Source: Dehalococcoidia bacterium (GTDB lineage Bacteria > Chloroflexota > Dehalococcoidia > Lucifugimonadales > UBA3495). Taken from it: 64,000 nucleotides of DNA. How positions within the stretch are numbered: position 1 is the first letter of the stretch; each line of letters opens with the position of its first letter. The notes beneath the pieces were generated by a model. It made no database searches and was not told the DNA's origin. It saw nothing but the letters and a program-made list of their open reading frames with translations. The stretch is taken from positions 2,709,945 to 2,773,944 of the forward strand of contig OZ220464.1 of assembly GCA_965115825.1 (NCBI GenBank), given 5' to 3'. Shown piece after piece: positions 6,225-52,770 of this stretch. The position numbers and the translations under genes were made by a program.

Positions 6225-6344
6225 GGTGAAACCTTTCGGGCTGATAGTCCGGCGGAGGCGAAGCCACTGCGTTGTGGCCGGATGGCGATAGCGGGATTGC
6301 CATCGCTAACCGGCCACGGCGAACATTGGGCCGGAGATGGCCGG

Positions 6345-7529
6345 TCAGTGTTCCGCGCCCTGCTTGGTGAAGTGTGGCATCACGTCGCTGGCGAACCATT
6401 CTAGCTGCTCCATGGATGCGGCGGTGGGCATTCCCATATTGGTGACGCCGATGTTGATTTCTGCGAGGCCGGGGTAACGCTCCTGGACGGCCATGAGCTG
6501 CTCGACGATGCGGTCCGGGGGGCCGACCAGATACTGTCCGGCGGCTACGGCTTCTTCAATCGTCGGCATTTTCAATCCCTGGGGAACCGGGCGGCCAAAG
6601 GCGTTGAGGGCGTCGAGTTGTTCCTGGGTCAAGCCGGCGATGAAGCCCAGGGGGCCGAACATTTTGACGCGCTCTTCCATCCAGAGGCGGGCCTGGTCCA
6701 TGGCTTCTTTCTCGGAGTTGGCAATCTGCACGGAGTAGCCGACGATGAGGCCCTCGCCGAGTTTCCAGTCTTTGCCGTGCTCGGCGTGGATGGCTTGCCA
6801 GCGTTGGATGACGTCGTCGCTGGCGCCGCCGGTGGCCGCGCCGCCGCCGATGATGCCCTTGATGCCCCATTTGGCCATGAAGTTGATGGCGCGGTCGCTG
6901 GCCGAGACCACGGGCTGCCACCATTCGACATCGTACTTGGGCCGCGGCACGAGGGTGATTTCTGCCAGGTCGTAGCCGCGGTAAGGGACGTTGGGGGGGA
7001 TGTCATAGTGCTTGCCATGGTGTGAAAAGCTGCGCTGATTGAAGGCTTTCCAGATGACCTCAACCTGTTCTTCGAACAGTTCGCGGTTGGCGTTCTGGTC
7101 CATGATGGGGGCGCCGAAGGCTTCTACTTCGCGAGTGTGGTAGCCGCGTCCCACGCCGAAGCGGACGCGGCCATCGGTGAGCCAGTCGGCGGTGGCGTAA
7201 TCTTCGGCCAGGCGGAGGGGGTTCCACATGGGGTTGATGTTGAAGCCGCAGCCGAAGCGCAGGTTTTTGGTGAGGTGGGCGAGGTGAACCCAAAGCATGA
7301 GCAGGTTGGGGATGACTTCGTAACCTTCGCGTTGGAAGTGGTGTTCGGCGGCCCAGAAGGTATCGTAGCCCAGGCGGTCCATGGCGGTGGCGATTTCTTC
7401 GGCCTTTTTGATGCCGCCGCCGGCGAGTTCTTCGTCGGAGAGCCAGCGGTCATTGGCCGGCGTGCCCTGGTAGCCGGGGTTGTCCATATCGACGTTGCCG
7501 GCCCAAAGGCTGCCAAATTTGGTAATCAT
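6345..7529 (-). CDS. LLM-class (luciferase-like) flavin-dependent oxidoreductase
   Basis: AEEIATAMDRLGYDTFWAAEHHFQREGYEVIPNLLML...RFGCGFN...DGRVRFGVGRGY is the typical LLM TIM-barrel signature. Confidence 0.88.
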   Translation of the reverse strand: MITKFGSLWAGNVDMDNPGYQGTPANDRWLSDEELAGGGIKKAEEIATAMDRLGYDTFWAAEHHFQREGYEVIPNLLMLWVHLAHLTKNLRFGCGFNINPMWNPLRLAEDYATADWLTDGRVRFGVGRGYHTREVEAFGAPIMDQNANRELFEEQVEVIWKAFNQRSFSHHGKHYDIPPNVPYRGYDLAEITLVPRPKYDVEWWQPVVSASDRAINFMAKWGIKGIIGGGAATGGASDDVIQRWQAIHAEHGKDWKLGEGLIVGYSVQIANSEKEAMDQARLWMEERVKMFGPLGFIAGLTQEQLDALNAFGRPVPQGLKMPTIEEAVAAGQYLVGPPDRIVEQLMAVQERYPGLAEINIGVTNMGMPTAASMEQLEWFASDVMPHFTKQGAEH

Positions 7530-7611
7530 GTAACGGGTACCTCCTTGTGTGGCGGTGGCGCTTGCCAGCGTGTTGGTCGTATGTTAGCGGGTTTGGGGGA
7601 TGCTGTCAGCA

Positions 7612-8838
7612 TCAGCGCAGGGTGCGGAAGAACTCCCGCATATCGGCGACCAGCTCGGTCGGCTTTTCCAGGGCGGCGAAGTGTCCGCCGCTGTCCATCT
7701 CGGTCCAGCGCTGCACGTTGTAGGTACGCTCGGCCCAGGAGCGCGGCGGAGTGGACAGTTCTTTGGGAAAGACGGCGATGGCGCAGGGAACGTTGATGCG
7801 GTCATCGGGGCCGAAATACCACGGCGTCCGGCCGTTTTCGTAGTACAGCCGGGTACTGGAGTTGATGGTCTGCGTGACCCAGTAAATCATAACGGTGGTG
7901 AGCAGGTCGTCTTTGGTGTACACGCTTTCGATGTTGCCGTTGCAGTCGCTCCAGGAGCGGTACTTTTCCACAATCCAGGCGCAGAGGCCGACGGGGGAGT
8001 CGTTGAGGCCATAGGCCAGGGTCTGGGGTTTGGTGCCCTGGATGTGGGCGTAACCGCCCTCGGCGGCGGCCCAGGAAACGCGCCGGTCAATCATGGTCAG
8101 CTCTTCGTCGGAGAGGGTGGCGGCGAAATCGCGGCGATAGCCGCCCTGAGGGGTTCCGATGACCTGCTCGAGACGTTCGCGCATACTCAAACCCACCAGG
8201 CTGGCACCCTGGTAGGGGATGGCCTGGGTGACGGAGGTGGTGTGAATGCCCAGCACGTGGTCGGCGTGGTGGAAGCCGAGGCGGGCGGTTACGCCGGCGC
8301 CCCAGTCGCCGCCCTGGGCGGCGTAGCGTTGGTAGCCCAGTTCGTCGGCCATGAGCTTATCCCAAAGCTCTGCGATTTTGCGGGTATTGACGCCGCGGGC
8401 GCGGGTTTGGGCGCTGAATCCGTAGCCGGGCATTGACGGGACGATGACGTCGAAAGAGTCGGAGGGGTCGCCGTTGTGGCGGGCCGGGTCGGTAAGCATG
8501 GGGATAATTTTGTGCATTTCGTAGATGGATCCGGGCCAGCCGTGGGTTACGATGATGGGCATGGGGTTGGGGCCTTGGCCTTTTTCGTGAATGAAGTGGA
8601 TGCCCTGGCCGTCGATGGTGGTATAGAAATTGGCGAAAGCGTTGAGGCCGGCTTCGGCTTTGCGCCAGTCATAGCCATCGCGCCAGTAGGCGACCAGCTC
8701 CTTGATGTAGTTCAAGTTGGAGCCGTAATCCCATTCGGCGCCGGGGATCTCATCGGGCCAACGGACGTGGGCCAGCCGGTGTTTGAGGTCTTCCAGAACT
8801 GCGTCGGAAACGTTGATGGAGTAGGGCTGTACCGCCAT
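7612..8838 (-). CDS. epoxide hydrolase (microsomal-type, alpha/beta fold with EH N-terminal domain)
   Basis: MAVQPYSINVSDAVLEDLKHRLAHVRWPDE...GIHFIHEKG..PMPIIVTHGWPGSIYEM...QGGDWGA. The start is set at the internal ATG 8838, preceded by GGAGG. The upstream 93 codons of the track ORF run through a tandem DNA repeat. Confidence 0.88.
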   Translation of the reverse strand: MAVQPYSINVSDAVLEDLKHRLAHVRWPDEIPGAEWDYGSNLNYIKELVAYWRDGYDWRKAEAGLNAFANFYTTIDGQGIHFIHEKGQGPNPMPIIVTHGWPGSIYEMHKIIPMLTDPARHNGDPSDSFDVIVPSMPGYGFSAQTRARGVNTRKIAELWDKLMADELGYQRYAAQGGDWGAGVTARLGFHHADHVLGIHTTSVTQAIPYQGASLVGLSMRERLEQVIGTPQGGYRRDFAATLSDEELTMIDRRVSWAAAEGGYAHIQGTKPQTLAYGLNDSPVGLCAWIVEKYRSWSDCNGNIESVYTKDDLLTTVMIYWVTQTINSSTRLYYENGRTPWYFGPDDRINVPCAIAVFPKELSTPPRSWAERTYNVQRWTEMDSGGHFAALEKPTELVADMREFFRTLR

Positions 8839-8851
8839 GTGGAACCTCCAT

Positions 8852-8926
8852 TGGAAAGGGTTCGGGTGGAAAGGGTTCGGGTGGAAAGGGTTCGCTCTGC
8901 AAGGGTTCGGATTGTAAGGGGTTGTT
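8852..8926. repeat. 5 decaying tandem copies of a 15-bp unit (TGGAAAGGGTTCGGG) in the epoxide hydrolase 5' leader
   Basis: Read directly: units at 8852, 8867 and 8882 are near-identical, and 8897 and 8912 are degenerate. They sit immediately upstream of the SD/ATG at 8838 on the minus strand. Confidence 0.85.
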
Positions 8927-9096
8927 TGGCAAGGAGTTCCGGCGTAAGGGCCGGGGCGGGATTGTAGGCGGGGCGACAGCGCGCCGACGTTGTACGCTGC
9001 CGGCAGTTTAGCACAGGCGGCACAGGAGGAGCCGGCGGCGGCGTTTGTCAGCCGGTTTTGCCAAGTGGTAAGATAGAGGTCAGAGGAGGTGGCAAA

Positions 9097-9468
9097 ATGG
9101 CAACGCCAAAGGTACATGTCAGCTCTGGTGAGGCAAGTTCGCCATTGAACGACTCTCCCGGGTCTGTTTCTAACGGAGCGTCGCCGGATGGTACCGTAGA
9201 GCCGAAAAGTGGCGGAGCTGGCAGCAACAACTGGTTGAACTTCGCACTGTTCTCTATCGGTGGCGTTGCTGCCGTAGGCTTGGTGGTGATACTTTTCGGC
9301 GCCTATTTGATGGAACCGGAGAACACTGGCGCGATCGTTGCCGGCACTATCATTCTGATGCTGGCAGTAATCGCATGGGTATTTACGGCGCTGATCATGG
9401 TTGGGAACCTTATCTGGGGAATGATCACCTCTCGCGGTAACGAATCGCGTAAATCACCATCGCAATAA
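9097..9468 (+). CDS. small membrane protein, hypothetical
   Basis: GAGGAGG lies 7 nt before the ATG at 9097. The N-terminus is S/G/P-rich, followed by hydrophobic segments (FALFSIGGVAAVGLVVILFGAYL; AIVAGTIILMLAVIAWVFTALIMVGNLIW). Confidence 0.55.
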   Translation: MATPKVHVSSGEASSPLNDSPGSVSNGASPDGTVEPKSGGAGSNNWLNFALFSIGGVAAVGLVVILFGAYLMEPENTGAIVAGTIILMLAVIAWVFTALIMVGNLIWGMITSRGNESRKSPSQ

Positions 9469-9697
9469 CAATGACTACCAAAAGCCCTATCAATACGATA
9501 AGAGCAGCATCTACGCTGGTTGACAAAGGCTGGGTCAGTATGGTTGTCGGTTCGTCGTTGGCTTGGCTCCTGACGTAGAGCAACCCTCCCATCGCTCCCA
9601 GCGTAAAAATCCCTACTCCGATGAGGACGAGCAGTTTGGGGGGCAGTCTTCCCCACAAATCCTTCAGAATGGGCAGAGGATTGCTTGTGAAATCCAT
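9425..9697 (-). CDS. small membrane protein, hypothetical
   Basis: Two hydrophobic helices (LLVLIGVGIFTLGAMGGLLYV; AALIVLIGLLVVIVIAMVIYAI). It is convergent with the previous ORF and overlaps its 3' end by 44 nt. Confidence 0.5.
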   Translation of the reverse strand: MDFTSNPLPILKDLWGRLPPKLLVLIGVGIFTLGAMGGLLYVRSQANDEPTTILTQPLSTSVDAALIVLIGLLVVIVIAMVIYAIRYRER

Positions 9698-9701
9698 GCG
9701 T

Positions 9702-10901
9702 CTATTCTACCAAGAAGCGGGTGAAGACCTGATTGGCAAGCAGGTAGGCCTTTTCGGACAGACGCAGATTGCTCTCGTTTTCCCATAGCAGGAGGCCTTC
9801 CGCCGTCAGCTCGGCCAGCTCGCTGGCGTAGCGGGCCAGGAGGTTAATCCCGACTCTTTGCGACGCGGCGGTTATGTCCATGCCGTCCAGGAGGCGCAGT
9901 CCCAGGAACATCGTTTCCGCCGCCGCCGTTGCCTGGTCGATGATTTCCAGCCCGTCAACGGTTGTCGCCCGGTCTATGGCGGCCGGCGTCACCGAGGGCC
10001 AGGGCGTTGCGGTTGCCGCCCATTCGCCGGCACGGCGGGCGTACTCTCGGGGTGAGCGCACAGTCCAGAACCGGCAATGGGCCAGAGAGGAGTGGGCTCC
10101 CGGCCCGACGCCGAGCCACTGCCGGTTGCGCCAGTAAGTGAGGTTGTGCTCGGATGCTCTTCCGGGAAGGCTCCAGTTGCTGATTTCGTAGTGGTGATAA
10201 CCGGCGTCGGACAGGGCGGCGCGGGCGAAGTCGTACATATCGGCGGCCAGATCCGGGTCGGGTTCGGGCAGCCGCCCCTGCTCGACCCAACGCCGCAGCG
10301 GGGCGCCTTCTTCCAGCGTCAGGGAGTACAGAGACAGATGCTCGGGGGCCAGGGCAATGACACGGCCCACGGTATCCTCCCATTGCGCCAAGGATTGCTG
10401 CGGCAGGCCGTACATCAGGTCCAGGCTGATGTTGTCAAATCCGGCGCGGCGGCAAGCGTGGAAGGCGGCGACGGCTCCGTCGGCGTCGTGGCGGCGGCCC
10501 AGCATCGCCAGCAGGCCGTTATGCAGGCTTTGCACGCCGATGCTGATCCGGTTGATGCCGGCGGCGCGCAGCTCGGCGCAGCGGGCGGAGGTAAGGTCGT
10601 TGGGGTTGCACTCCGCCGTTATCTCGGCGTCGCTGCGGAGGGGATATGCGGCGGCGATGGCGTCAAGTATCCGGGCGGCGTCGCCTTGGGGCAGGTAGGA
10701 GGGAGTGCCGCCGCCGAGGAAAACGGTATTCACGGGGGGCCGGCCCAGGGCGGTGGCCCAGGCTGCAATCTCCCCGGTTATCGCGGTGAGGAAATCGGCG
10801 AACTGCGCTTCGATGCCCTGGTAAGTGTTGAAATCACAGTAGGGACATTTGGTGAGGCAGAAGGGGATATGGACGTACAGAGAGATGCTGTCTTGCTGCA
10901 T
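9702..10901 (-). CDS. hemW: radical SAM heme chaperone / oxygen-independent coproporphyrinogen-III oxidase-like protein
   Basis: LYVHIPFCLTKCPYCDFN is the CxxxCxxC radical-SAM motif. FLGGGTPS, RISIGVQS and the C-terminal HemN_C-like region match the HemW/HemN family. Confidence 0.88.
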   Translation of the reverse strand: MQQDSISLYVHIPFCLTKCPYCDFNTYQGIEAQFADFLTAITGEIAAWATALGRPPVNTVFLGGGTPSYLPQGDAARILDAIAAAYPLRSDAEITAECNPNDLTSARCAELRAAGINRISIGVQSLHNGLLAMLGRRHDADGAVAAFHACRRAGFDNISLDLMYGLPQQSLAQWEDTVGRVIALAPEHLSLYSLTLEEGAPLRRWVEQGRLPEPDPDLAADMYDFARAALSDAGYHHYEISNWSLPGRASEHNLTYWRNRQWLGVGPGAHSSLAHCRFWTVRSPREYARRAGEWAATATPWPSVTPAAIDRATTVDGLEIIDQATAAAETMFLGLRLLDGMDITAASQRVGINLLARYASELAELTAEGLLLWENESNLRLSEKAYLLANQVFTRFLVE

Positions 10902-10924
10902 AGTCCACCGCGTTAACTGCCGTG

Positions 10925-11299
10925 TCAGTGGTGGGTATCGTCGGTGGAGCGGGCCTGTCCGTCCACCACGCTGTCGGGGTCGCGGTCTTCGGGTCGCGGC
11001 GGCGGCGGTTCACCCATGTGTTCCCGAACCACTGCGGGAGGGCATAGCTTCCAGAAAATAAAGACTGCCAGCCCTAAAATGATGAAGTCGTCATAGCGAC
11101 CCAGGCCGTAGGGGAGATGGTCTCTGATAAAGTCCCACGGCCAAACTGCGTAAGCTACCGCCAGGGGCACCAGCAGCTTCAGCAGGAAATGCACTCTATC
11201 GTCCCGATGCAGCCGCCAGAGGGCCCGAGCGAACTTGAGGACTCTGGGGGCCAGCTGTGGGCCGAACATCAGGATGAATGGCCAGAGGAAACGCAACAT
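10925..11299 (-). CDS. YkvA/DUF1232-family membrane protein
   Basis: VPLAVAYAVWPWDFIRDHLPYGLGRYDDFIILGLAVFIF matches the DUF1232 pattern (P.D.IPD..P..G..DD). Confidence 0.7.
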   Translation of the reverse strand: MLRFLWPFILMFGPQLAPRVLKFARALWRLHRDDRVHFLLKLLVPLAVAYAVWPWDFIRDHLPYGLGRYDDFIILGLAVFIFWKLCPPAVVREHMGEPPPPRPEDRDPDSVVDGQARSTDDTHH

Positions 11300-11353
11300 T
11301 GCAACACCGCCTTGGCTGTTGATGTTAGCACATTGAGGCCGGGATTACGGGCG

Positions 11354-11383
11354 TTGACAAGCCGTGAATTATGGTTCTACAAT
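11354..11383 (+). promoter_or_regulatory. sigma-70-like promoter (TTGACA-N18-TACAAT) for the Cys4-HTH gene
   Basis: TTGACA is at 11354-11359 and TACAAT at 11378-11383. The GGAGG SD and ATG follow at 11422. Confidence 0.55.
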
Positions 11384-11421
11384 GCGCCCATTACCAGAAC
11401 TCAAGTTTGGGAGGAGTTGCC

Positions 11422-11763
11422 ATGTATGCTGTGAATGCAGTTGCGCCGAGCCGAAGCCAAAGGGCACAGGCGGGCAGGTCTATTTACGAAGATACGGGCT
11501 GCGAGGTGGCCGGCGCCTGCCTAGAGTGCCCGCTGTCGCGCTGCAAGTTTGACGATATGGAGTGGTTCACCAAGTACCGGCAGATGGCGCAGGATTTGCG
11601 GATAGTGGCTGCCGTCCGGAAGGAGAGACTGACCATAGCGCAGACCGCCGCGCGGTTTTCCATTACCAAGCGGACGGTGTTTCGCATTCTGCACCGCTGC
11701 CAGGATGCCTGGTGGGAATTGACTCCTGAGGAGGCTGCGGTGTTCGCATCGCTGGCGGACTAG
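11422..11763 (+). CDS. small DNA-binding protein with an N-terminal Cys4 cluster and a helix-turn-helix
   Basis: GCEVAGACLECPLSRCKF has C-x5-C-x2-C-x4-C spacing. LTIAQTAARFSITKRTVFRILHRC is HTH-like. GGAGG precedes the ATG at 11422. Confidence 0.6.
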   Translation: MYAVNAVAPSRSQRAQAGRSIYEDTGCEVAGACLECPLSRCKFDDMEWFTKYRQMAQDLRIVAAVRKERLTIAQTAARFSITKRTVFRILHRCQDAWWELTPEEAAVFASLAD

Positions 11764-11779
11764 GCGCTCCGGGAATTCA

Positions 11780-12955
11780 TCACCCCCGGGGGAGGGTCAG
11801 GCCGCGGCCGGCGATGACGCCGCGCTGCACTTCCGAGGTGCCGCCGGCGATTTTGTGGGAGAAGCTAATCATCCAGTTTTCGGGCAGACGCCCTTTCAGC
11901 GGCGCGCGGGGTTCTGGACGGGACAGCGCGCCGGGCAAGCCGGCGATTTCCAGGACGGAGTTGGCGGCGCGATGCAGGGTTTCGCTGCCAAAGGCCTTGC
12001 TCATGGAGGCTTCTTTGTTGGGAACCTGCCCTTCGCCCTGCATCCAGGCTACGTTGTAGGCCATCAGGCGGGCCACTTCGCACTCCACGTAGCGGTCGGC
12101 CAGCAGGTTGCGCACCCAGAGGATCTGAGTGGCCCGGCGGCCGTTGCGCGAGACCTTGTCGGCATACTCCCGGGTGTCGTCCAGCAGACGGCGGGCGATG
12201 GCGGAGTAGTCGATGCCGGAGCGTTCAAAGTCCAGCAGCGTTACTGCCACGTACCAGCCCCGATTTTCTTCGCCGACCACATTGCTGGCGGGCACGCGCA
12301 CGTTGTCGAAAATCACCTGGTTGAACTCATGGCCGCCGGCCATATTGATGACCGGACGGACCTCAACGCCGGGGGATTTCATGTCCACCAAGATGAAGCT
12401 GATGCCCCGGTGTCGCGGAGCCTCAGGGTCGGTGCGGGCCAGGCACATAATCCAGTCGGAGCGGTGCGCCAGGGTGGTCCAGATTTTCGCGCCGTTGATG
12501 ACGTACTCGTCGCCATCGCGTACGGCGCGGGTACTGAGGGAGGCCAGGTCGGAGCCGGACTCGGGCTCGCTGTAGCCTTGGCACCACTGGATTTCACCGC
12601 GCGCGATGGGAGGCAGGTGGGTCTGTTTCTGCTCATGGCTGCCGTGGAGCATCAGAGTTGGGCCGAGCATCCGCACGCCGAAAATATCCCGGCCGGGCGC
12701 GCGGAGATAGGCCAGTTCTTCGTTGTAGATGGCAGAGCGAACCGGGGATGCGTCCTGCCCGCCGTACTCTGCCGGCCAGTGCATGGTCAGCCAGCCTTTT
12801 TCGGCCAGACGGCCGCGCAGGCGCATGGTAAAGTCCCAGTCGTATTCTTCCGGCCAGCGACCGCCGCCCTCCCAGCCCGGGGGCAGCTGGGACTGGATGA
12901 ATTGGCGCAGCTCGCCGCGGAATCGGTCGTCGTCGGGAGTGAAGCGATACTCCAC
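11780..12955 (-). CDS. acyl-CoA dehydrogenase family protein
   Basis: WCQGYSEPESGSDLASL, GAKIWTTLAH and the C-terminal IAGGTSEVQRGVIA are classic ACAD blocks. Confidence 0.9.
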   Translation of the reverse strand: MEYRFTPDDDRFRGELRQFIQSQLPPGWEGGGRWPEEYDWDFTMRLRGRLAEKGWLTMHWPAEYGGQDASPVRSAIYNEELAYLRAPGRDIFGVRMLGPTLMLHGSHEQKQTHLPPIARGEIQWCQGYSEPESGSDLASLSTRAVRDGDEYVINGAKIWTTLAHRSDWIMCLARTDPEAPRHRGISFILVDMKSPGVEVRPVINMAGGHEFNQVIFDNVRVPASNVVGEENRGWYVAVTLLDFERSGIDYSAIARRLLDDTREYADKVSRNGRRATQILWVRNLLADRYVECEVARLMAYNVAWMQGEGQVPNKEASMSKAFGSETLHRAANSVLEIAGLPGALSRPEPRAPLKGRLPENWMISFSHKIAGGTSEVQRGVIAGRGLTLPRG

Positions 12956-13009
12956 GGAGCCTCCCTGCTATTGGCGCATTGGGTTGGAGTTGAGGAGTGG
13001 GCCGGGCAA

Positions 13010-13246
13010 TCAGGCGTCCACGGCGACGCAGGTTACGGTGCGAACCACTCCGGTAACGGTGTGAATTTTCTCTGTTACCAGGTTCCCCACGACGGACATA
13101 TCGTCGCCGGAGATGACGGCGATAATGTCGTAAGGGCCGGTGACTACGTCCACGGACTCGATGCCGCCCAGTTCGCGCAGGGTGGTGGCGACGTCGCGGG
13201 TGCGTCCAACGGCGGTTTCGACCAGCAGGAAGGCTTTGGTTGCCAT
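13010..13246 (-). CDS. stand-alone Lrp/AsnC ligand-binding (RAM) domain protein
   Basis: 78 aa. KAFLLVETAVGRTRDVATTLRELGGIESVDVVTGPYDIIAVI resembles the AsnC-type effector domain, and no HTH is present. Confidence 0.75.
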   Translation of the reverse strand: MATKAFLLVETAVGRTRDVATTLRELGGIESVDVVTGPYDIIAVISGDDMSVVGNLVTEKIHTVTGVVRTVTCVAVDA

Positions 13247-13384
13247 GGTTCAGGGTCTCCTATGTCTATTGTTTTTGTCGGGTGAGGGGCTGGCGGCGCG
13301 GCGCGGCCCCGATTGCCGGGCAATTCTACGGCGGCGGCGGCGGAAGTGTCAATTGATGTGGACGCGGGGGCCTGGGTTATAACG

Positions 13385-13415
13385 CATTGGGGCGACTGTA
13401 CCAGTCGCCCCAATG
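13385..13415. terminator. perfect 14-bp inverted repeat (CATTGGGGCGACTG-tac-CAGTCGCCCCAATG) 3' of the 528-aa FtsZ-like gene
   Basis: Read directly, 37 nt downstream of the stop at 13452. There is no strong U-tract on either strand, so terminator function is inferred. Confidence 0.5.
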
Positions 13416-13451
13416 CGGTTTGCCACAGGGTGGCGTGGGTGGCAGGTTTGT

Positions 13452-15038
13452 CTAGGGACGGAAGCCGCCGCCGGCGCCGTTCTCGTAGCTGCTGCCGTTT
13501 TCGTGACCGTAGCCGTTCTCGTGGCCGGCGCCGTTGCCGTTCTGACCGGGTGGGGTTTCAACGGCGGTGCGATGTTCCTGTTGGTGCCGCCGCCGCTGCC
13601 TCCGGTTCCAAATGTCCTCGCCGCGGGAGAGGAAGCCGTAGGAGTTTTGGGATCGCAGTTCTTCGGGGCTGACGCCAATGTAGTGGCCAGTGCCGAAGCC
13701 GATTGGCTTCAGGTCTCCGCTGGTCTGCGCCGTAGTGTCGCTGTTGAGCATGATGTTGGTGATGCTGCCGATGTTTTCGGTCTGCAATGGGTAGAAGAGG
13801 GATATGTGCATATGCCGGTCGTCCGGGTTTTCCTGGAAGTTGGCTGAAGCGAAGGACCAGGTGAGGTTGGGGTAGGCTCTTTCGAAATTCTCCCGGTCGA
13901 GCTGGTCGCGGACGTCGCTCTCGATTTCGCCGAGGCCAGTGGTTTCAACGGGGAGGGTAATGACCATCCGCATTGGAACGTCTTCTTCAAAGGGCCCGTG
14001 CTCGGCGAGGTTCATGCCTTTAAGATGCGGGTCGAGAATTTCCCACATGGACTTTTTGATGGTCCAGGTGAGTTGCTTGGCGTCGTCGTTGACGACGACC
14101 AGCTCGCGACCGCGCAACGGGCCGAACCAGCGGCTGCGCTGAGGCACGTCGGCCACGTCGAGGCGGCGGTTCATTACGCGCATACCGAACCAGCCGTTGG
14201 AGTAGTCGCCGAAGCTGGCTACGGTTTCGGACAAGGAGCCGCTGTCAATGCGGTCGCGCATTCCAGCTTCCATGGAGGCCAAGCCAATGGCCAAGTTGTT
14301 GTCCAGCCGCTGATAGTCCCGGGAGAGGCGGTTGTCGGTGACCAGAGCGGGGAACATTTTGACGTTGTTGCCGTTGGAGGCGGCCTGGTTGGTGTTGAGA
14401 TACCTGGGATCCTTGATGCCCATGGTTTCCTCGTAGGCACCCCAGGTTTCGCGGCGCATATTTTCCTCGAGGACGTGTTCGCGAGGCATGAGGATGATGG
14501 GAAGGAAAAGGGCGTCGGGGAACCTTTCGCGCAGCATACCGTGCAGGATTCCTCCCAGCTTGGCGTGGCCGCCGAAGCCGAGCCACTCCAGGATGATCTG
14601 GGGAGGAGAGCCTACTTCTTCGGAACGCCGGGCTACGGTGTCCACCATTTTCTCCATATCGCGGTGGATCAGGCCGTAGAATTCCTTGAAGGCGTTGGGG
14701 TCGCGCAGGAAGCCGTCGACCTTGGGGAGATATCCCGGCAGGATGATGGGCAGGCTGCCGGAGCGGACATTGCGACGCATGGACTGGGTTTCGGAGTCGA
14801 TGGCGTCGATGCTGCCCTGGTTGCAGTCGTACATGAGGAGGCTCTGGACGCGGTCAAGCACTCCGGCCTCGCCCATGCGCATGGCCCACTTCCAGCTGCG
14901 CTTGTAGCCGGCGGTTCCTACGGCCACGGATACGATGGGCGGGGGGACGCCGTCGCGTGCCCGGTCTTGCTGGTTCCCCAAACGATGGGGATTGTTGCGG
15001 CGGATATGGAAAATTCGGTTTTGCAGTTTCGGCGGCAT
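13452..15038 (-). CDS. divergent FtsZ/tubulin-superfamily-like protein (paralogue B), low-complexity G/N/E/H tail
   Basis: Ordered blocks match FtsZ landmarks: IVSVAVGTAGYK (T1), LLMYDCNQGSIDAI (FtsZ FFAVNTDAQAL), VDGFLRDPNAF (T3, GAGANPEVG), ILEWLGFGGHAKLGG (T4, GMGGGTGTG). Further blocks: FLPIILMPREH (S5/T5, VVTKPFNFEG), ALVTDNRLS (ITIPNDKLL), LDNNLAIGLASMEAGMRDRI (H7). The assignment is motif-level only. Confidence 0.55.
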   Translation of the reverse strand: MPPKLQNRIFHIRRNNPHRLGNQQDRARDGVPPPIVSVAVGTAGYKRSWKWAMRMGEAGVLDRVQSLLMYDCNQGSIDAIDSETQSMRRNVRSGSLPIILPGYLPKVDGFLRDPNAFKEFYGLIHRDMEKMVDTVARRSEEVGSPPQIILEWLGFGGHAKLGGILHGMLRERFPDALFLPIILMPREHVLEENMRRETWGAYEETMGIKDPRYLNTNQAASNGNNVKMFPALVTDNRLSRDYQRLDNNLAIGLASMEAGMRDRIDSGSLSETVASFGDYSNGWFGMRVMNRRLDVADVPQRSRWFGPLRGRELVVVNDDAKQLTWTIKKSMWEILDPHLKGMNLAEHGPFEEDVPMRMVITLPVETTGLGEIESDVRDQLDRENFERAYPNLTWSFASANFQENPDDRHMHISLFYPLQTENIGSITNIMLNSDTTAQTSGDLKPIGFGTGHYIGVSPEELRSQNSYGFLSRGEDIWNRRQRRRHQQEHRTAVETPPGQNGNGAGHENGYGHENGSSYENGAGGGFRP

Positions 15039-15189
15039 GGCGCTACAACCCCCTTGCAGGTTAGATATTCCCGCTTCTGGCGAAGCGGCTATTTACGGTT
15101 GGTCTGATTTGGAGTGTATCCGGCTGAACCGGGCTTGTTCGCTCTCTGAAAGTAGGTTTGGGCAGGGACGCCCCGCTGTGGCTTGGGGC

Positions 15190-15219
15190 ATTATAATGCA
15201 AAAAGATGTGGGGAGTCAA
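15190..15219 (-). promoter_or_regulatory. near-consensus sigma-70-like promoter (TTGACT-N18-TATAAT) between the two FtsZ-like genes
   Basis: On the minus strand, TTGACT is the reverse complement of 15214-15219 and TATAAT of 15190-15195. It lies in an AT-rich 224-bp gap, ~150 nt upstream of the ATG at 15038. Confidence 0.5.
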
Positions 15220-15262
15220 ATTGATTTCTCTGTCAATTATTTAGTAAAATTCCCATATTTTG

Positions 15263-16621
15263 CTAAATATAGCGCACGTTTTGCTCCCAGTCGTCATTGG
15301 GGGGGTTGGGCGACGGGAGGGAGCGGGCAGCGGAGGGCGCATCCATATGGTGATACGAGCCAAAGCCGGTGTCGCGAACCGATGCGGTTGAAGTATCGTC
15401 ATGGTTGATCCCGGGGTGGAGAATATCCATGACGGGAGCGAGCTGGCCCAGCACGGGATAGAGCCGCGATACGTGGAGATAAGGGTCTTTGGAAAGTCCC
15501 TCGCTGAAGCGGGCGGTATTAAAAGCAATGTCGACATTGGGGAGCTGGGTGAAGAAGTTGCTGCGCTCCAGCGCTTCCGCAGTATACGCGGCCATGGGTT
15601 CCAGCGAGTCCGGGTGCACGGGCAGGGAAACCATGATTTCCTGGGGGGAGTTGTACGGTTCGCGTACACCCGGCACCATTTGCGACGGTGGTTCGAGGGT
15701 GGCCCAAATGGCGTCGGCAATGGACATTGAGGGTCCGTTTTCCGAGCCGATGGCGGCGTATTCCTGCCACCAGGGTGGGAAGCGAAGCCACTCGAACTTG
15801 CGCGTAATCGGCATTTTGCGCCGCACGGTGCCCATGCCCAGCCAGCCCCCGGAGGCGGGGAAGACCCGGCCATAGGCAACGGCAAGCTGGCTGCTGCCGC
15901 CGAATCCCTCTGCCAGCTCGGCGGCCTCGAACCCGGCCAGGGCGGTGACGAGTCGGAGGTCTTCGTCGCCGTTGCTGCCGGGCGACAGCCCGGTCAGCAG
16001 GCAGTTGGCGTCTTCGAGCAGGTTTTCGTAGCGCTCCCAGATGTAGCGTCGGGTCCACTCTTTGGAGGCGTGCTCTTCCGGCAGGGTGAGCACCGGCAGC
16101 AGGACGCTGGCGGGAAAGGCTACGCGGAGCTTGCGATGGAGGCGTCCGCTGGGGACCGAATGGCCGGAGAACCCCAGAAACTCGATGATTGTGTCGGGGG
16201 CGCGCCCGGCGCTCTCGGACTGCGCGGTGATTTGGCTGACGATGTTGTCCATATCCCGTTCCAGCGGCCCCTCGTATTCTTCAAACCGTCGGGGGTTGCG
16301 CATAAAGCCGTTGGCCATGGGTATGTAACTGGGGAACAGAACCTGCACGCCCTGGCCATGCTTGGATTTGCCCAGAAACTTGCGCAGGAATCGCTGCACG
16401 TAAGAGATGGTCAGCTCGTTGCAGTCGTAGAAGACGGCGCTTTGAACCCGCCGCAGCTGGGAGAGTTCCGACATGCGCTGCAAAAACCATAGGGCCCGCC
16501 GGCTGCCGGCAGTGCCGGCGCCCAGCACGACGAGGGAAGACGGCCTGGCGTCCGTCTTGAGCTTGGTGGCGCGGAGCAGCGGGCCGCTCCGGTCGCGCGC
16601 TTTTACGTATATGCTTGGCAT
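15263..16621 (-). CDS. divergent FtsZ/tubulin-superfamily-like protein (paralogue A)
   Basis: Paralogous to 13452-15038: LVVLGAGTAGSR, AVFYDCNELTI, PSYIPMANGFMRNPRRFEEYEGPLERDMDNIV, IIEFLGFSGHSVPSG, LLPVLTLPEEH. The blocks have the same order and spacing as the FtsZ T1/NTD/T3/T4/T5 landmarks. Confidence 0.55.
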   Translation of the reverse strand: MPSIYVKARDRSGPLLRATKLKTDARPSSLVVLGAGTAGSRRALWFLQRMSELSQLRRVQSAVFYDCNELTISYVQRFLRKFLGKSKHGQGVQVLFPSYIPMANGFMRNPRRFEEYEGPLERDMDNIVSQITAQSESAGRAPDTIIEFLGFSGHSVPSGRLHRKLRVAFPASVLLPVLTLPEEHASKEWTRRYIWERYENLLEDANCLLTGLSPGSNGDEDLRLVTALAGFEAAELAEGFGGSSQLAVAYGRVFPASGGWLGMGTVRRKMPITRKFEWLRFPPWWQEYAAIGSENGPSMSIADAIWATLEPPSQMVPGVREPYNSPQEIMVSLPVHPDSLEPMAAYTAEALERSNFFTQLPNVDIAFNTARFSEGLSKDPYLHVSRLYPVLGQLAPVMDILHPGINHDDTSTASVRDTGFGSYHHMDAPSAARSLPSPNPPNDDWEQNVRYI

Positions 16622-16655: not shown

Positions 16656-17456
16656 TCAGGAGCCCGGCTTCAGAAACGCAAGCAGGGCGCTGACGAAGCC
16701 TTCCGGGTCTTCGATCTGCGGGATATGACCGACGCCCGGCATGATGTGCTTGCGGGCGCGGACGATGTTGTTGTGGAGCAGTTCGGCGCCGTCGCGCAGG
16801 CGGTCAAGCTCGCCGTACAGCGCCAGGGTCTCGCGGGCCTTCACCAGGGGCAGTCGCGCCATGATGTCGTACCAGGCCAGGGATTCGTGGAGCTTCTTGA
16901 CCCAGGGGCCGGCCTGAGCGCGGGCGTCGTTGAGGGCGGCGATCCATTCCGGGCGCGGCTCGGCGAAGGTAGTGGCTGCTTTGGCCTGCTCCGGCGTGCG
17001 GGGAACGGGCAGGCCGTCGGCGTCGTAGCCGGCGGCGGCTTCAGCGAGGCGCTCCGGAGCAGAGCGCGCATCCCACACCGGGGCACCCACCAGAGCCAGC
17101 TTGTCCAGTCGGTCGGGGAAAGACGCCGCCATCTCAACCGCCAGCACGGCCCCTACGGAATTGCCCACGTAATGACCCCGGTGGATGTTGAGTATCTGAC
17201 AGGCATCGTCCAGCGCCTGAGCGTAATCCGGGATGTTGAAATGGCGGGCAGGCTTGTCGGATTTGCCGTGGCCCAGCATATCGAAGGCGTAGCAGGTATA
17301 GTGGCGGCTGAAAGCGTCAATGACGCCGCTCCAGGCCCAAGTGGAGGTTCCCAGTGGGTGGAGCATCACCAGCGGATAGCCGGAACCCTGCTTGACGAAG
17401 TGCATATTGCCTTCCCGGGTGGGTACGGTATCGGCAAGGTCGCGCCGCACGAACAT
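16656..17456 (-). CDS. alpha/beta-fold hydrolase
   Basis: PLVMLHPLGTS..W, FDMLGHGKSDKP, nucleophile elbow VGNSVGA, and C-terminal MPGVGHIPQIEDPEGF. Confidence 0.88.
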   Translation of the reverse strand: MFVRRDLADTVPTREGNMHFVKQGSGYPLVMLHPLGTSTWAWSGVIDAFSRHYTCYAFDMLGHGKSDKPARHFNIPDYAQALDDACQILNIHRGHYVGNSVGAVLAVEMAASFPDRLDKLALVGAPVWDARSAPERLAEAAAGYDADGLPVPRTPEQAKAATTFAEPRPEWIAALNDARAQAGPWVKKLHESLAWYDIMARLPLVKARETLALYGELDRLRDGAELLHNNIVRARKHIMPGVGHIPQIEDPEGFVSALLAFLKPGS

Positions 17457-17750
17457 AACGCTGGCCTCCTCTTCGCTGCCGGCGGAACGAAAAACGCCGG
17501 CCCGGCCGTCGGCTTATGCGGTAATTTCGGTAATTCAGGGCCCGGCCGGCTGCTACGGCGCATATGCTAACGATATGGCAGGTGTAATGTCAAATGCCGG
17601 GGCTTGTCCGGCCGCTTCATCCCGTGGGTTTCCCAAGAATTCCCCCAAAATTGGGCTAAATTGGCCCATTATCGTAATACTCCCGTAATACTTCCCGGTT
17701 TATAATGCGCCGCGAATGCCCGGCATACGCTGCAACCCGCATTAAGGAGG

Positions 17751-17815: not shown

Positions 17816-17942
17816 CCCATCTCAACAAGGGGGAGCTACTCTCCTCCCTCCCGAGGTGGCCGCCCTGCCGGCCAATCTCACACCGTCGTTCCGGCTTATT
17901 ACGGAACCCCAGACCAATCCCAATGCTAGGGATTTACCTACA

Positions 17943-19064
17943 ATGAAACCTAAGCTGCAAAAAATTACGGGGTCAGGGCCCCTGACCATAACGGTCCTCG
18001 CCGTTGCAGGCACCATGGCCCTCTTCGGCCGCCTCGCCCGGCCTAACCCCGGCCCCGGCAGCGCTCAGCAAGGCGCCTGCGCTGAGGGTGGAACCGGTTT
18101 TCAAACCACTTCCACTACCGGGGGCCGGATGGCCTTTACCGGCACGATTACCGTCAACCAGCGCAACCTGTCCGGGGCGGCGCTGATTACCGGCCTCACC
18201 AACGACCAATCCTACCAGGTGCAAGTGCGCGTCACCTGCGCCGACACCTTCGGCCCCTGGAGCACTTCCGCATCGGCAACCCCGGCAACTGCGACAGCCG
18301 CGGATGGACCGCTCGGCAGGGTTGGGAGTTTGAAGGCCGCACAAACCTGGTGGGCGCCTGGAACGGTAAATCCGGCGGGATGGGAGTACAGCGTGTACGC
18401 CGACGGTTCCGGGCGTTGGTTCGTCGAGCATCAGGTGGACGGCAGCGCGCCCATCCCCTCAACCAGCGCAGTTGAAGCCAAGTACAGCGACCTGGTGCGG
18501 CTGGGCGAGTACGAAGCGCCGGCGTCCATCATTATGGTTGACCCCGGTGAAGGGCAGCCCGGCGATGAAATCACGCTGTCGGCGGGGAAGATGCCGGTGC
18601 ACTCCCGCGTCAGCCGGATTGAAATCGGCGGGCGGGACGTAATGCCGGCGGGAACGCCCGGCACCGACCGCGATGGGGCGGTCACGGTGGAGGATATTGT
18701 TATCCCGGGCTTTGACCCCGGCGATTACAGTGTCCTGCTGGAGGTCAACAACACGGTGGCCATTGGCAACGTGGACATCCTTCCCGAAGGGATCATCGGC
18801 TCCGGCGCCCCGGCGTCTGAGGCGCTGGATGAGCTGGGCGACGACTTGCTGGACGTCTTCTATTTTGACGGGGTGAGCAAGGAGAGGCTGTTCTACGACC
18901 CGCGTCCGGAGTTCGCCGGCCTCAACACCCTGGATGAGCTGGTAGCTGGCGAAGCCTACTGGGTACCGGTGACGGAGGATGTTGAGGATGTGGCGCTGGG
19001 CGGCAAGAGCCGCAGCCTGACGTGCAGCGCCGGCGGCAACTGCCGGAACCTGATGGTATGGTAG
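17943..19064 (+). CDS. secreted/cell-surface protein with FN3-like and IPT/TIG-like beta-sandwich modules
   Basis: MKPKLQKITGSGPLTITVLAVAGTMALFG is a signal/anchor. An FN3-like block follows (ITGLTNDQSYQVQVRVTCADTFGPWS), then an IPT-like block (GDEITLSAGKMP...IEIGGRDV...DYSVLLEV). The start is uncertain because the track ORF begins at 17856. Confidence 0.6.
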   Translation: MKPKLQKITGSGPLTITVLAVAGTMALFGRLARPNPGPGSAQQGACAEGGTGFQTTSTTGGRMAFTGTITVNQRNLSGAALITGLTNDQSYQVQVRVTCADTFGPWSTSASATPATATAADGPLGRVGSLKAAQTWWAPGTVNPAGWEYSVYADGSGRWFVEHQVDGSAPIPSTSAVEAKYSDLVRLGEYEAPASIIMVDPGEGQPGDEITLSAGKMPVHSRVSRIEIGGRDVMPAGTPGTDRDGAVTVEDIVIPGFDPGDYSVLLEVNNTVAIGNVDILPEGIIGSGAPASEALDELGDDLLDVFYFDGVSKERLFYDPRPEFAGLNTLDELVAGEAYWVPVTEDVEDVALGGKSRSLTCSAGGNCRNLMVW

Positions 19065-19256
19065 GCGGGCAAGCCACGCTGATCCAATCATCGGAAAACG
19101 GACAAGGAAGCGCCCCTCCTTATTTAATGGGGGAGGGGACAAACAACCACCAAAAGAGCGGGAGTGAGCAACCGGAAGCCCATCGTTCCCATACTGTTCA
19201 CTCCGCTCGCCCATCTGGTAAAATATCCACCATCAAAAAAACAGGAGCAGATTGTC

Positions 19257-19940
19257 ATGAAGAGATACGCAACCATTGCAGCGGCGGCCCTGGTGGCCCT
19301 GCTGCTAGCTCTCCCCTTTGGCCTGGCCGCTGCCCAGGAGACAGAGACGCCCAGCGTCAACCTCCCGCCGGCCTTCATTTTCGGCACGGCCTCCGCTGAC
19401 GGCATCCCCGTCCCCGAAGGCACCATGGTAGTAGCCATGGCCGGCAAGGAGGAGTTCGCCACCACCGAGACTATGCCCGGCGGCAAGTTTGAGCTGACGC
19501 TTATGCAGCCCCCCGCCGGCGAAAACACCATAACCTTTATGGTAGGCCAGCGGATGGCCGATTACAGTTTTGAATGGATGTCCGGACACCGCGCGGTGGT
19601 TAACCTCGCCGCCGACCTGGATGCACCCGGCGGCAGCGGGCCCAGCGCGCCGGGAAACCCCGGTGAGCCGGGACCCCCGGGCGAGCCCGGTGAACCTGGA
19701 GCCGTAGGCCCGGTCGGGCCGGCGGGCCCTCCCGGTGAGCCGGGCCCGCCGGGTAGAGACGGAGCGCAAGGAGCGAAAGGCATAAACGGCCCGCCGGGCC
19801 CTCCTGGTGCGGCGGGAGCTGCCGGCCCAATGGGGCCCGCCGGGAGTTCGGGATCCATGGGCATCATCGCGCTGATAGTGGCCATCATCGCCGCCATCAT
19901 CGCAATAGCGGCCGTCGTAATGGGCCGCCGCACCGCCTAG
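19257..19940 (+). CDS. membrane-anchored bacterial collagen-like protein
   Basis: Signal peptide [27 protein letters not shown], then a beta-sandwich-like domain. 23 uninterrupted G-X-Y triplets follow ([19 protein letters not shown]...[10 protein letters not shown], ~19653-19859), then a C-terminal TM helix [23 protein letters not shown]. Confidence 0.85.
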
Positions 19941-51521: not shown

Positions 51522-52733
51522 CTATCCGTTGAAGAAGCCTTCTTCCCGGAAAAGCTCGGCCAGGCGGCCTACTCCCTCGTGGATTTCTTCGGGGGAGTTG
51601 TGGCTGTAGGTAAGGCGCAGGTAGTTGTTGCGGCCCCGGTCGGAGCGGAACACGCCGCCGGGGTTGTACTTAACATCGCGGGCTACGGCTTTGGGGAGCG
51701 CGGCCCAAGTGTCGGCGTTTTCGGGCAGGCGGACGAAAATCAGCATACCGCCCTGGGGATGGGCCCATTCGCAGGATGAGGGGAAGTTGTGGGCCAGGGC
51801 TGCCAGCATTGCGTCGCGGCGGGCGGCCAAGGCGAGCCTGACTTCCTCGATGTGATCGGGCCCGCGCTGGCGCAGATATTCGTACACCAGCATGGTGGCC
51901 AGGTGGCTTACGCCGCGCCGGGGAGGTACGCCGCCGTTGACCTGACGCAATGCCTGACCTACGGCCGGGGGCATGACCCCGAACCCGACCCGCAATCCGC
52001 AGCCGAGCAGCTTGGTGAATGACGATACATAGATGACGTCGTCGCGGTGGGTGAGGCCGGAAAAGGCGGTAGGGAGAGCGGGGCCGTCAATGCGGAAGTC
52101 GGCGTAGGATTCGTTTTCCAGTATGGGGACGTCGTAGCGCTGAGCGACGTCGAGCAAGGCGCGCCGCCGGGGTTCGGGCACGGTAAATCCGAGGGGGTTC
52201 TGGTACACGGGGATCATCCAGACGAATTTGGGGCGGCGGCCGGCGTCGGTTAAGGAGCGCAGGGCGCTTTCCAGGGCGTCGGGGAGCATGCCGTGTTGGT
52301 CGCAGGCTACGTGGATGGGTTCGGCTCCGCGCTCGAGCATCATGCGGAGGCTGCCGAGGTAGGTGAATTCCTCTACCAGGATGGGGTCGCCGGGGTTGAC
52401 GAAGGCTTCCAGGATGATGCTGACGGCCCCGCCGGCGCCGTCGGATATGAAGACGTCATCGGGGGATGGCGCGAAACCTCTGTTGGCGGCGAGGCGGTTG
52501 GCGATGAGTTCCCGCAGGCCGATGTGTCCGCCGGGCGGGGGATAGGCGGCCAGGGAGTTGGGGCCGCCGGCGTCGAGTCCGGCGCGGACGGCGGTGAGGT
52601 ATTGGTCGAAGGCGATGACTTGGGGCACCGCGTTGGTGATGGAAAAGACGTATTTGGCGGGAGCGTCCGCGCCGTCCGGCATGGCTACGGGCCGGGGCAG
52701 GTTGCGGGAGAAGAGGGCTGAGTAATCTACCAT
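51522..52733 (-). CDS. PLP-dependent aminotransferase (class I/II, MocR/2-aminoadipate transaminase-like catalytic domain)
   Basis: YPPPGGHIGLRELIA, ENESYADF and the SSFTKLLGCGLRVGF lysine block. Confidence 0.85.
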   Translation of the reverse strand: MVDYSALFSRNLPRPVAMPDGADAPAKYVFSITNAVPQVIAFDQYLTAVRAGLDAGGPNSLAAYPPPGGHIGLRELIANRLAANRGFAPSPDDVFISDGAGGAVSIILEAFVNPGDPILVEEFTYLGSLRMMLERGAEPIHVACDQHGMLPDALESALRSLTDAGRRPKFVWMIPVYQNPLGFTVPEPRRRALLDVAQRYDVPILENESYADFRIDGPALPTAFSGLTHRDDVIYVSSFTKLLGCGLRVGFGVMPPAVGQALRQVNGGVPPRRGVSHLATMLVYEYLRQRGPDHIEEVRLALAARRDAMLAALAHNFPSSCEWAHPQGGMLIFVRLPENADTWAALPKAVARDVKYNPGGVFRSDRGRNNYLRLTYSHNSPEEIHEGVGRLAELFREEGFFNG

Positions 52734-52770
52734 TATCAGAGTCTCCGGGTTTGGCCGATTGTGGGTGAGA

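Follow-up and report, generated by a model that had tools for sequence, protein, structure and literature searches.

Two adjacent genes, A and B, in a stretch of 64,000 nucleotides (nt) of a Dehalococcoidia bacterium (assembly GCA_965115825.1, contig OZ220464.1, positions 2,709,945 to 2,773,944 of the forward strand; hereafter the window) encode proteins that are predicted to share the fold of tubulin and FtsZ. Gene A (15263..16621, minus strand) encodes 452 amino acids and gene B (13452..15038, minus strand) encodes 528, and each is supported by its open reading frame (ORF), an AlphaFold2 model, Foldseek matches and motifs. They are members of a rare, unannotated and very divergent family, which by its predicted fold, and at the fold level only, belongs to the tubulin/FtsZ superfamily. 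The preferred reading is that this is a new family of the superfamily whose two proteins co-assemble, with B catalytic and A inert. As it stands, there is about as much reason to accept this reading as to doubt it.

The two ORFs are present exactly where the first-pass annotation, made from the sequence alone, had placed them. Their comparison marks A and B as paralogues, far beyond chance, because BLASTP aligns them over ~448 amino acids with 29% identity (E = 8e-55) and every matching block quoted earlier as a sign of paralogy falls inside this alignment.

Predicted fold and nucleotide-pocket loops

The AlphaFold2 models of A and B were both built from one combined alignment of 69 sequences. 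The model of B has a predicted local distance difference test score (pLDDT) of 78.5 and a predicted template modelling score (pTM) of 0.79; the corresponding values for A are 76.9 and 0.83. In both models, the order of elements is S1-H1-S2-H2-S3-H3-S4-H4-S5-H5-S6-H7-H8-S7-H9-S8-H10-S9-S10. This is the tubulin/FtsZ topology, which consists of an N-terminal Rossmann-like nucleotide-binding domain (S1-S6, H1-H5), the core helix H7 and the activation domain (H8-H10, S7-S10). The globular core ends after S10 with one short helix, which is followed by a low-confidence tail. The earlier placement of loops T1-T6 and of H7 agrees with this order.

Against the Protein Data Bank (PDB), Foldseek finds 858 matches for B and 765 for A at E <= 1e-3. 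The best E values are 8.7e-12 (B) and 2.5e-12 (A), with probability 1.0. The top 50 matches of each model come exclusively from the tubulin superfamily and include no ordinary Rossmann enzyme, so that the structural check proposed in the first-pass annotation came out in favour of the tubulin/FtsZ fold. The superfamily structures matched are those of alpha-, beta- and gamma-tubulin, BtubB, CetZ, M. jannaschii FtsZ, TubZ and OdinTubulin. Template modelling (TM) scores are 0.5-0.58 and sequence identity to the matches is 10-14%. The alignments span both domains and cover 405-430 of the 452 residues of A. Among viral predicted structures (BFVD), there are 10 significant matches, and all of them are phage FtsZ/PhuZ/tubulin-like proteins. 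On the evidence of these models, A and B both have the two-domain tubulin/FtsZ fold.

At the sequence level, superfamily membership is not demonstrable. Searches of A and B against Pfam (E <= 10), NCBIfam, PADLOC and PHROGs give only noise. No match to PF00091, PF12327, PF03953 or PF13809 is found for either protein at E <= 10; the first, second and fourth of these are profiles by which the first-pass annotation had proposed to recognize the family, and they lend it no support. The 39 full-length distant members likewise have zero matches to the tubulin or FtsZ Pfam models. Sequence searches of the PDB are empty both for B alone (phmmer) and for the 69-sequence family profile. The comparison of the family alignment with FtsZ by hhalign is not significant (probability 0.4%, E 0.16). 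Here, the FtsZ side comprised 76 sequences from Gammaproteobacteria only, and a broader tubulin/FtsZ/CetZ profile might outperform it. The sole alignment obtained pairs S1/T1 (VGTAG/VGGGG), T2 (YDCN/VNTD) and T3 (GFmRDPn/GAGANPEV), and its register is that of the structural mapping and of the first-pass annotation. The superfamily assignment rests on predicted structure because the sequence-profile methods miss the relationship. Two other candidates were rejected. PrimPol/BT4734 matches to A (E 0.009-0.12) concern ~50 residues of H3 only and are well below threshold, and a Pyr_redox_2 match to A is weak Pfam noise (E 0.25).

Homologues in a collection of 5.8 billion proteins number 37 for B and 70 for A. 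All of them are unnamed or "hypothetical", and they come from Chloroflexi/Dehalococcoidia metagenome-assembled genomes (MAGs) and from an assembly of the sponge Geodia barretti. The family is rare: among 1.84 billion cluster representatives, an exhaustive profile search by HMMER yields 100 at E <= 1e-3. Literature searches did not find a description of the family; their coverage is incomplete, so absence is not proven.

The nucleotide-pocket loops known from FtsZ and tubulin were located by the AlphaFold2 elements, and conservation was computed in each of three sets, namely the B family, the A family and the distant members. The family motifs are G[TS][AT][GQ]xx[RK] in T1, YDxN in T2, [DE]GFxR[DN]P in T3, [LF]GFGGH[AS] in T4, LP[VI]..xP in T5, xTDN in T6, LDxRLAxxLAxxE in H7 and G[ST]LxE at the T7/H8 junction. 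All loop coordinates given below are on the minus strand. In B, T1 and the start of H1 read GTAGYKR (residues 41-47, 14898..14918), where G41, G44 and R47 are invariant in both paralogue families. T1 lies at the expected S1-H1 position, and its G-x-A-G resembles the GQ[AC]G of tubulin in form only. T3 of B is DGFLRDP (residues 108-114, 14697..14717), with G109, F110, R112 and P114 invariant in both families. The arginines of H1 and T3 (R47 and R112) are therefore both among the invariant positions, and 22 of the 30 columns that are invariant across the two paralogue families fall in T1-T6/H7.

The phosphate-binding signature GGGTG(S/T)G is absent, and [LF]GFGGH[AS] stands in its place family-wide. 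T4 is GFGGH in B (residues 154-158, 14565..14579), invariant in 50 orthologues, and GFSGH in A (residues 150-154, 16160..16174). That this glycine signature is degraded in both proteins had already been noticed from the sequence. These facts show that T1-T6/H7 is the most constrained part of A and B and that its chemistry has changed. A Cys/His/Asp catalytic centre was also considered, as C72, H158 and D71 are invariant in the Dehalococcoidia proteins. Its Cys part was rejected because the position is occupied by I, S, Y, F, T, V or L in distant members.

B keeps the ancestral motif set and A is a derived copy

The two paralogues differ in T6 and around T7. T6 of B contains TDN (residues 234-236, 14331..14339), which is kept in B and in the single-copy relatives. 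The equivalent of A is TGL (15986-15994), and TDN is lost. The T7 loop and the start of H8 in B read IDSGSLSE (residues 264-271, 14226..14249), where D265 and E271 reach at least 90% conservation across the B family. G[ST]LxE is present in nearly all distant family members. This motif, D...G[ST]LxE, differs from the canonical NxDxx[DE]. In alpha-tubulin, the catalytic E254 is inserted into the nucleotide site of the neighbouring subunit, as is the catalytic Glu/Asp of FtsZ at T7/H8, and beta-tubulin has K254 instead. E271 is the third residue of the predicted H8 of B and is a candidate for its catalytic acid. The T7/H8 region of A, AELAEGFGGSSQLAV (residues 234-248, 15878..15922), has no conserved acid, is the least conserved part of the core and is partly of low pLDDT. 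The first-pass annotation had seen no T7 element in either protein; this holds for A but not for B, in which D...GSLxE is conserved at the T7/H8 junction.

Conservation across 50 orthologous genomes follows the same division. T1, T2 and T4 of B are 100% conserved. The pocket loops T1-T5 of A score 0.82-0.99, against a core mean of 0.77. T7 and H8 score 0.60 and 0.65 in A, the lowest values in its core, versus 0.77 and 0.85 in B. TDN together with G[ST]LxE is seen in B and in nearly all distant single-copy members, and not in A-type proteins. B therefore carries the ancestral full motif set of the family, including the TDN of T6 and the T7/H8 acid. A is a faster-evolving derived copy that has kept the pocket loops and lost the "DN" of T6 and the T7/H8 acid. 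Its acceleration is seen from the distances, since that from A to the single-copy members (1.89) exceeds that from B to them (1.25); the distance between A and B is 1.55. A neighbour-joining topology that places A outside all other members is probably a long-branch distortion and was set aside, and only the distances were used.

A second pair of family members, independent of A and B, is found in a metagenomic locus (L005). Its two copies are 38.5% identical and both have the full motif set. Because both keep all motifs, the asymmetry is considered specific to the Dehalococcoidia pair.

The motif TGFG directly follows the globular core in both families. In A, a variable acidic linker leads from the core to the extreme C-terminal peptide WEQNVRYI (15266..15289, minus strand), which is conserved as W.Q.VRY[IF] in most members. 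B has a C-terminal extension (13455..13625, minus strand) composed of a basic helix, RGEDIWNRRQRRRHQQEHRTAV (residues 472-493, pattern RG.Q.R.ERE...), and a Gly/Asn/aromatic low-complexity tail. This tail, noted in the first-pass annotation, is present at residues 494-528 and ends with GGFRP in the window; among B proteins, the tail keeps its character and a [FY]R[PR] ending. These C-terminal peptides after disordered linkers would probably recruit partners or make lateral or membrane contacts, like the C-terminal peptide of FtsZ.

Distribution and genomic setting

A locus scan with one genome per GTDB species found 57 loci. All of them are from Dehalococcoidia, Chloroflexota or SAR202 MAGs, except for one 4.8-kb contig assigned to Candidatus Latescibacterota (L060, JAAXHH010000081.1). 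Its hydrolase and A are 87% and 55% identical to those of the window, respectively, and it is probably a mis-binned Dehalococcoidia contig. In every locus with enough flanking sequence, from ~50 species, an alpha/beta hydrolase gene, A and B lie in this order on one strand. The co-occurrence of A and B in related genomes, on which the first-pass annotation had made its claim depend, is accordingly seen in ~50 species-level Dehalococcoidia genomes, with the genes adjacent and in the same order. Searches by tblastn of 72,556 plasmids and 50,697 phages found no copy of the family, and plasmid or phage carriage was rejected. Members occur only in one Dehalococcoidia subclade and as rare relatives in metagenomes.

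In the window, the hydrolase (16656..17456, minus strand, 266 amino acids, PF00561 E 2.7e-26, with the nucleophile motif GNSVG) is upstream of A, with a gap of 34 nt. Downstream of B is a stand-alone AsnC/Lrp ligand domain (13010-13246, 78 amino acids, PF01037), followed by an acyl-CoA dehydrogenase. Both neighbours had been correctly named from the sequence. Conservation of the AsnC domain, the acyl-CoA dehydrogenase and HemW is limited to closer relatives. No FtsZ-like ORF or third paralogue is present in the window.

Orthologues of the hydrolase fall into two groups. All 50 that are at least 83% identical are followed by A, and then by B where the contig allows. None of the 29 that are 72-79% identical (L200-L229, Dehalococcoidia) has A or B within 4.5 kb. 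The neighbourhoods of the latter are not syntenic, so no clean insertion or deletion can be read from them. From this split, the hydrolase is considered an older gene, which also occurs where the pair is absent, and their adjacency is taken as peculiar to one subclade. Of the neighbours, whose conservation the first-pass annotation had proposed to test, the hydrolase adjoins the pair in ~50 species, but the partnership is not obligate.

Relative to the hydrolase, the evolutionary rates of A and B are 5.2 and 4.3 times higher, respectively. Their pairwise distances are correlated (r = 0.79), and the partial correlation controlling for the hydrolase is 0.61, a value reached by 0 of 2000 permutations. 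This gives weak, indirect support for co-evolution of A and B, and indirect support for a putative physical heterodimer.

The spacer between A and B (15039..15262, minus strand) is 224 nt long with 48% GC, against ~62% in the window. It contains a promoter-like site of B, a 5' leader of ~150 nt and a Shine-Dalgarno sequence, and its length is 218-262 nt in most orthologous loci. The promoter-like site, TTGACT-18-TATAAT (15190..15219, minus strand), agrees with the consensus at 11/12 positions, as the near-consensus promoter described earlier in this AT-rich gap. Among 51 distinct orthologous spacers, only the -35 and -10 boxes and the Shine-Dalgarno sequence AGGGGGT are conserved. A riboswitch or other RNA in the spacer was rejected, as the comparison with Rfam gives no match and the conserved blocks are these three. 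In one Dehalococcoidia locus (L191, OZ244251.1, 6890-7700), the spacer carries an IS4/5-family transposase gene on the opposite strand, with DUF4096 and DDE_Tnp_1 domains and split by a frameshift. A and B are intact there, and the 11/12 promoter is kept between the insertion sequence and B. Since the site is conserved in the 51 spacers and kept past this insertion, B appears to have its own conserved promoter. Another promoter-like site, TTGACA-18-TAGCAT (17564..17593, minus strand, 10/12 positions), is upstream of the hydrolase, with which A is probably co-transcribed. In two assemblies, IRC4_bin_11 (L012/L059) and jk18x22bins.99 (L013/L062), breaks occur in the lower-GC spacer and the pair is found on two contigs.

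The distant members occur in other settings, and the single-copy relatives from metagenomes are B-type. In L005 (ENA ERZ21861969 ctg21324l, 5500-15400), the two members (8001-9503 and 12768-14174) flank a VWA/YfbK_C gene, with a STAS / SpoIIE-receiver / HATPase_c_2 partner-switch module upstream and a HisKA kinase downstream. A 664-amino-acid ORF beside one of these members (P0036) was rejected as a paralogue (hhalign probability 0.2%). In L064, which is unrelated to L005, a STAS and HATPase_c_2 pair precedes the member P0109, and in L063 the member adjoins ParA-like and CHAT-like genes. A Dehalococcoidia chromosome (L061, OZ242043.1, 3869-16642) has a single-copy member of 617 amino acids with an acidic repeat tail (PESPEAHAPEDDPEPQES...). 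Its neighbours are a divergently transcribed CHAT-AAA(STAND)-TPR protein of 1244 amino acids, a Uma2 nuclease and a type IIG (Eco57I/MmeI-like) restriction-modification enzyme, a neighbourhood that looks like a defence island. Two members are fusions. In P0112 (L068), the family core is joined to a C-terminal response-regulator receiver domain (residues 452-562). In P0149 (L069), it is joined to a C-terminal trypsin-like protease (residues 602-759), and a gene with an XRE-type helix-turn-helix adjoins. These settings point to a connection of the wider family with signalling and possibly with conflict systems.

Several other features of the window are recorded here. Transcribed divergently from the hydrolase, 17856-19940 (plus strand) encodes a 402-amino-acid protein without Pfam match and a 258-amino-acid protein that has collagen triple-helix repeats (PF01391, E 5e-13) and is hydrophobic in a C-terminal segment. 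An epoxide hydrolase (EHN and Abhydrolase_1) is encoded at 7612-9117 (minus strand); its longest ORF has an N-terminal extension of ~95 amino acids with NPFHPNPFHPNPF repeats, and the real start may be farther downstream. At 52000-64000, the GC skew has strongly positive values (+0.28 to +0.42), and the AT skew goes down to -0.37 at 56-60 kb. This region contains an XdhC-family gene (55442-56578, minus strand) and two long ORFs without Pfam match (57016-57993 and 59489-61507, both minus strand).

Relation to known systems and possible modes of action

Among the closest parallels of A and B are alpha/beta-tubulin and BtubA/BtubB, which are also two paralogues with the two-domain tubulin/FtsZ fold, adjacent like A and B. 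Beta-tubulin, gamma-tubulin and BtubB (5o09) are among the best Foldseek matches, and the T7/H8 acid is found in one paralogue only, as in alpha-tubulin compared with beta-tubulin. However, identity to tubulin and BtubAB is 10-14%, matches to PF00091 and to Tubulin_C (PF03953) are lacking, and T4 is GFGGH where tubulin has GGGTGSG. The models have no H11/H12 and end with a short helix after S10 and a disordered tail. No btubC-like TPR gene accompanies A and B, and their duplication is confined to one Dehalococcoidia subclade.

FtsZ proper is encoded in the dcw cluster with ftsA/ftsQ and is universally conserved as a single copy. A and B share its fold (M. jannaschii FtsZ, 1w5e, is among the top matches of A) and its layout of a core, a variable linker and a conserved C-terminal peptide, and the hhalign alignment, though not significant, pairs S1/T1, T2 and T3 in register. 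Unlike FtsZ, A and B are outside the division cluster, next to the hydrolase, the AsnC domain and the acyl-CoA dehydrogenase. They lack PF00091, PF12327, the T4 signature and the NxDxxD motif of T7, and they evolve fast. CetZ (3zid, 4b45), TubZ (4ei7) and phage PhuZ have the same fold and are among the Foldseek matches. TubZ, PhuZ and CetZ are single-gene systems with canonical guanosine triphosphate (GTP) motifs, and TubZ and PhuZ are plasmid- or phage-borne, with TubR/tubC as partners for partition or positioning. A and B differ from them in being chromosomal and paired, with no PF00091 match and no plasmid or phage copy.

FtsZl1 and FtsZl2 (Makarova and Koonin 2010) retain GGGTG(S/T)G, define PF13809 (Tubulin_2) and were found by HHpred/PSI-BLAST; FtsZl1 has a coiled-coil and an alpha-helical C-terminal domain, and VWA/OmpA/GTPase neighbours belong to the definition of these families (PMC2875224). 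Like the family of A and B, they are highly divergent, sparse prokaryotic families of the superfamily with unassigned function. A VWA neighbour is shared with FtsZl1 only by the distant locus L005. Unlike FtsZl1 and FtsZl2, the A/B family has neither GGGTG(S/T)G nor a PF13809 match, even in the 39 distant members. A and B also have no coiled-coil domain, and no OmpA or GTPase neighbours are seen in the window. The family is not FtsZ, because it lacks the division-cluster context and the FtsZ_C domain; it is not of the BtubAB/tubulin type, because Tubulin_C and H11/H12 are missing; and it is not TubZ/PhuZ, because it is not on mobile elements. It is not FtsZl1/FtsZl2 either, and is a member of the superfamily at the fold level only.

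In the preferred reading, A and B would assemble head-to-tail. The T7/H8 face of B would dock on the nucleotide-side face of its partner and activate hydrolysis there, and the T7 face of A would be catalytically inert. Such an assembly would have one hydrolysable and one non-hydrolysable interface, as in alpha/beta-tubulin with E254 and K254. The pair could be considered as a chromosomal, vertically inherited module of one Dehalococcoidia/SAR202-type subclade, and its cytoskeletal or membrane-remodelling role, proposed in the first-pass annotation, is putative. A more far-reaching version can be speculated, though it is doubtful: that A and B are an obligate alpha/beta-tubulin-like heterodimer, arisen independently in Dehalococcoidia from an unrecognised deep-branching family with its own signature (GFGGH, GTAG, GFxRxP), and that it polymerises into bacterial cytomotive filaments of a new class, in which one nucleotide site is catalytic and the other structural.

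A number of points weigh against the preferred reading. The fold call comes from two AlphaFold2 models of one 69-sequence alignment with TM scores of ~0.5, and the Pfam searches at E <= 10, the PDB profile search and hhalign all fail to tie the family to tubulin/FtsZ. With the canonical T4 phosphate-binding signature gone, nucleotide binding itself is uncertain. E271 is put at the catalytic position by secondary-structure position alone. The independent pair of L005 does not show the asymmetry of A and B. The pace at which A and B evolve, 4-5 times faster than that of the neighbouring hydrolase, is out of the ordinary for core cytoskeletal proteins, and the control in the comparison of their distances is one single, slowly evolving gene. 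As B appears to have its own promoter, strict co-expression with A is not guaranteed. Finally, the signalling or conflict-like contexts of distant members and their fusions to receiver or trypsin domains hint at non-cytoskeletal roles, and they are the main reason for keeping such roles in consideration.

Among the alternatives, it is extremely unlikely that A and B lack the tubulin fold, being for example ordinary Rossmann enzymes, and that the AlphaFold2/Foldseek outcome is an artefact. Sequence-level support for the fold is absent, and the noise match of A is to Pyr_redox_2, but the pTM values (0.79 and 0.83), the tubulin-superfamily identity of the top 50 matches per model and of all significant viral matches, across both domains, and the register of the hhalign alignment all speak for the fold. 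The fold could have been repurposed, so that the two proteins are a ligand-binding switch, a scaffold or an enzyme pair in signalling or regulation, with a pocket (GFGGH, R47, R112, YDxN) that binds a ligand other than GTP. This is rather unlikely. It would fit the family-wide loss of the canonical T4 and gain of an invariant His and arginines, the fast evolution, the fusions of P0112 and P0149, the STAS/anti-sigma-kinase partner-switch genes in two unrelated loci, and the HisKA kinase and CHAT-STAND-TPR protein elsewhere. Yet the whole two-domain architecture is kept, including H7, the acidic T7/H8 motif of B-type proteins and the C-terminal activation domain, and this counts against repurposing because it is needed for polymerisation-coupled hydrolysis and not for simple ligand binding. 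The variation at Cys72 among distant members speaks against a Cys-based enzyme, and receiver or kinase contexts would also fit a regulated polymer.

Another possibility, to which we give the same rather low weight, is that B alone self-assembles and is active, as the single-copy family members must, with A as a non-catalytic pseudo-subunit that caps, nucleates or inhibits B polymers. A would offer its nucleotide-side face to the T7 face of B, and its own degenerate T7 face would halt growth or hydrolysis, comparable to gamma-tubulin or a T7-mutant FtsZ cap. All single-copy relatives are B-type. In A, an accelerated and derived copy, the nucleotide-side loops are conserved (T3 0.82, T5 0.84, H5 0.90) and the T7/H8 face is least conserved, and an independent promoter of B permits non-stoichiometric expression. 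On the other hand, A is kept at the same position in every genome with B and the distances of the two co-vary, which is equally compatible with an obligate heterodimer. That the hydrolase, A and B work as one three-gene module, with the tubulin-like pair as scaffold, localiser or regulator of the serine hydrolase or with these roles exchanged, is suggested by the shared order and strand in all 50 loci with a hydrolase at least 83% identical and by the gap of only 34 nt in the window. It is improbable all the same: the 29 more distant hydrolase orthologues lack the pair and have other neighbourhoods, none of the distant members has a hydrolase neighbour, the hydrolase is 4-5 times slower in its evolution than A and B, and the adjacency is explicable by one ancestral arrangement that was vertically inherited. 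A role in an anti-phage or other conflict system is considered very improbable. A and B evolve fast, the member of L061 lies near CHAT-STAND-TPR, Uma2 and type IIG genes, and the protease fusion of P0149 is beside an XRE regulator; but PADLOC gives no match for the pair, the metabolic neighbourhood is stable and syntenic in ~50 species with no variable island, no plasmid or phage copy was found, and neither A nor B has an effector domain.

The most recent broad survey gathered superfamily members through PF00091 (PMC9871819). Surveys by PF00091 or PF13809 would miss the A/B family, which neither model matches. A and B are small and soluble-looking, so recombinant work is feasible although the host is uncultured. 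In all domains of life, the tubulin/FtsZ superfamily plays a central part in cell division and in the cytoskeleton. To our knowledge, its known prokaryotic families (FtsZ, CetZ, TubZ, PhuZ, BtubAB, FtsZl1/2, artubulins and OdinTubulin) all keep GGGTG(S/T)G. The fold and a conserved pocket with a replaced T4 signature would widen the known sequence space of the superfamily. The asymmetry between A and B would offer an independent, recent and tractable case of the step from a homomeric tubulin-like protein to a heteromeric one with one dead catalytic loop, the step that also produced alpha/beta-tubulin. If an obligate heterodimer is true, the principle of the tubulin heterodimer would have been invented a second time, by convergence, in Chloroflexota that are uncultured and partly associated with sponges.

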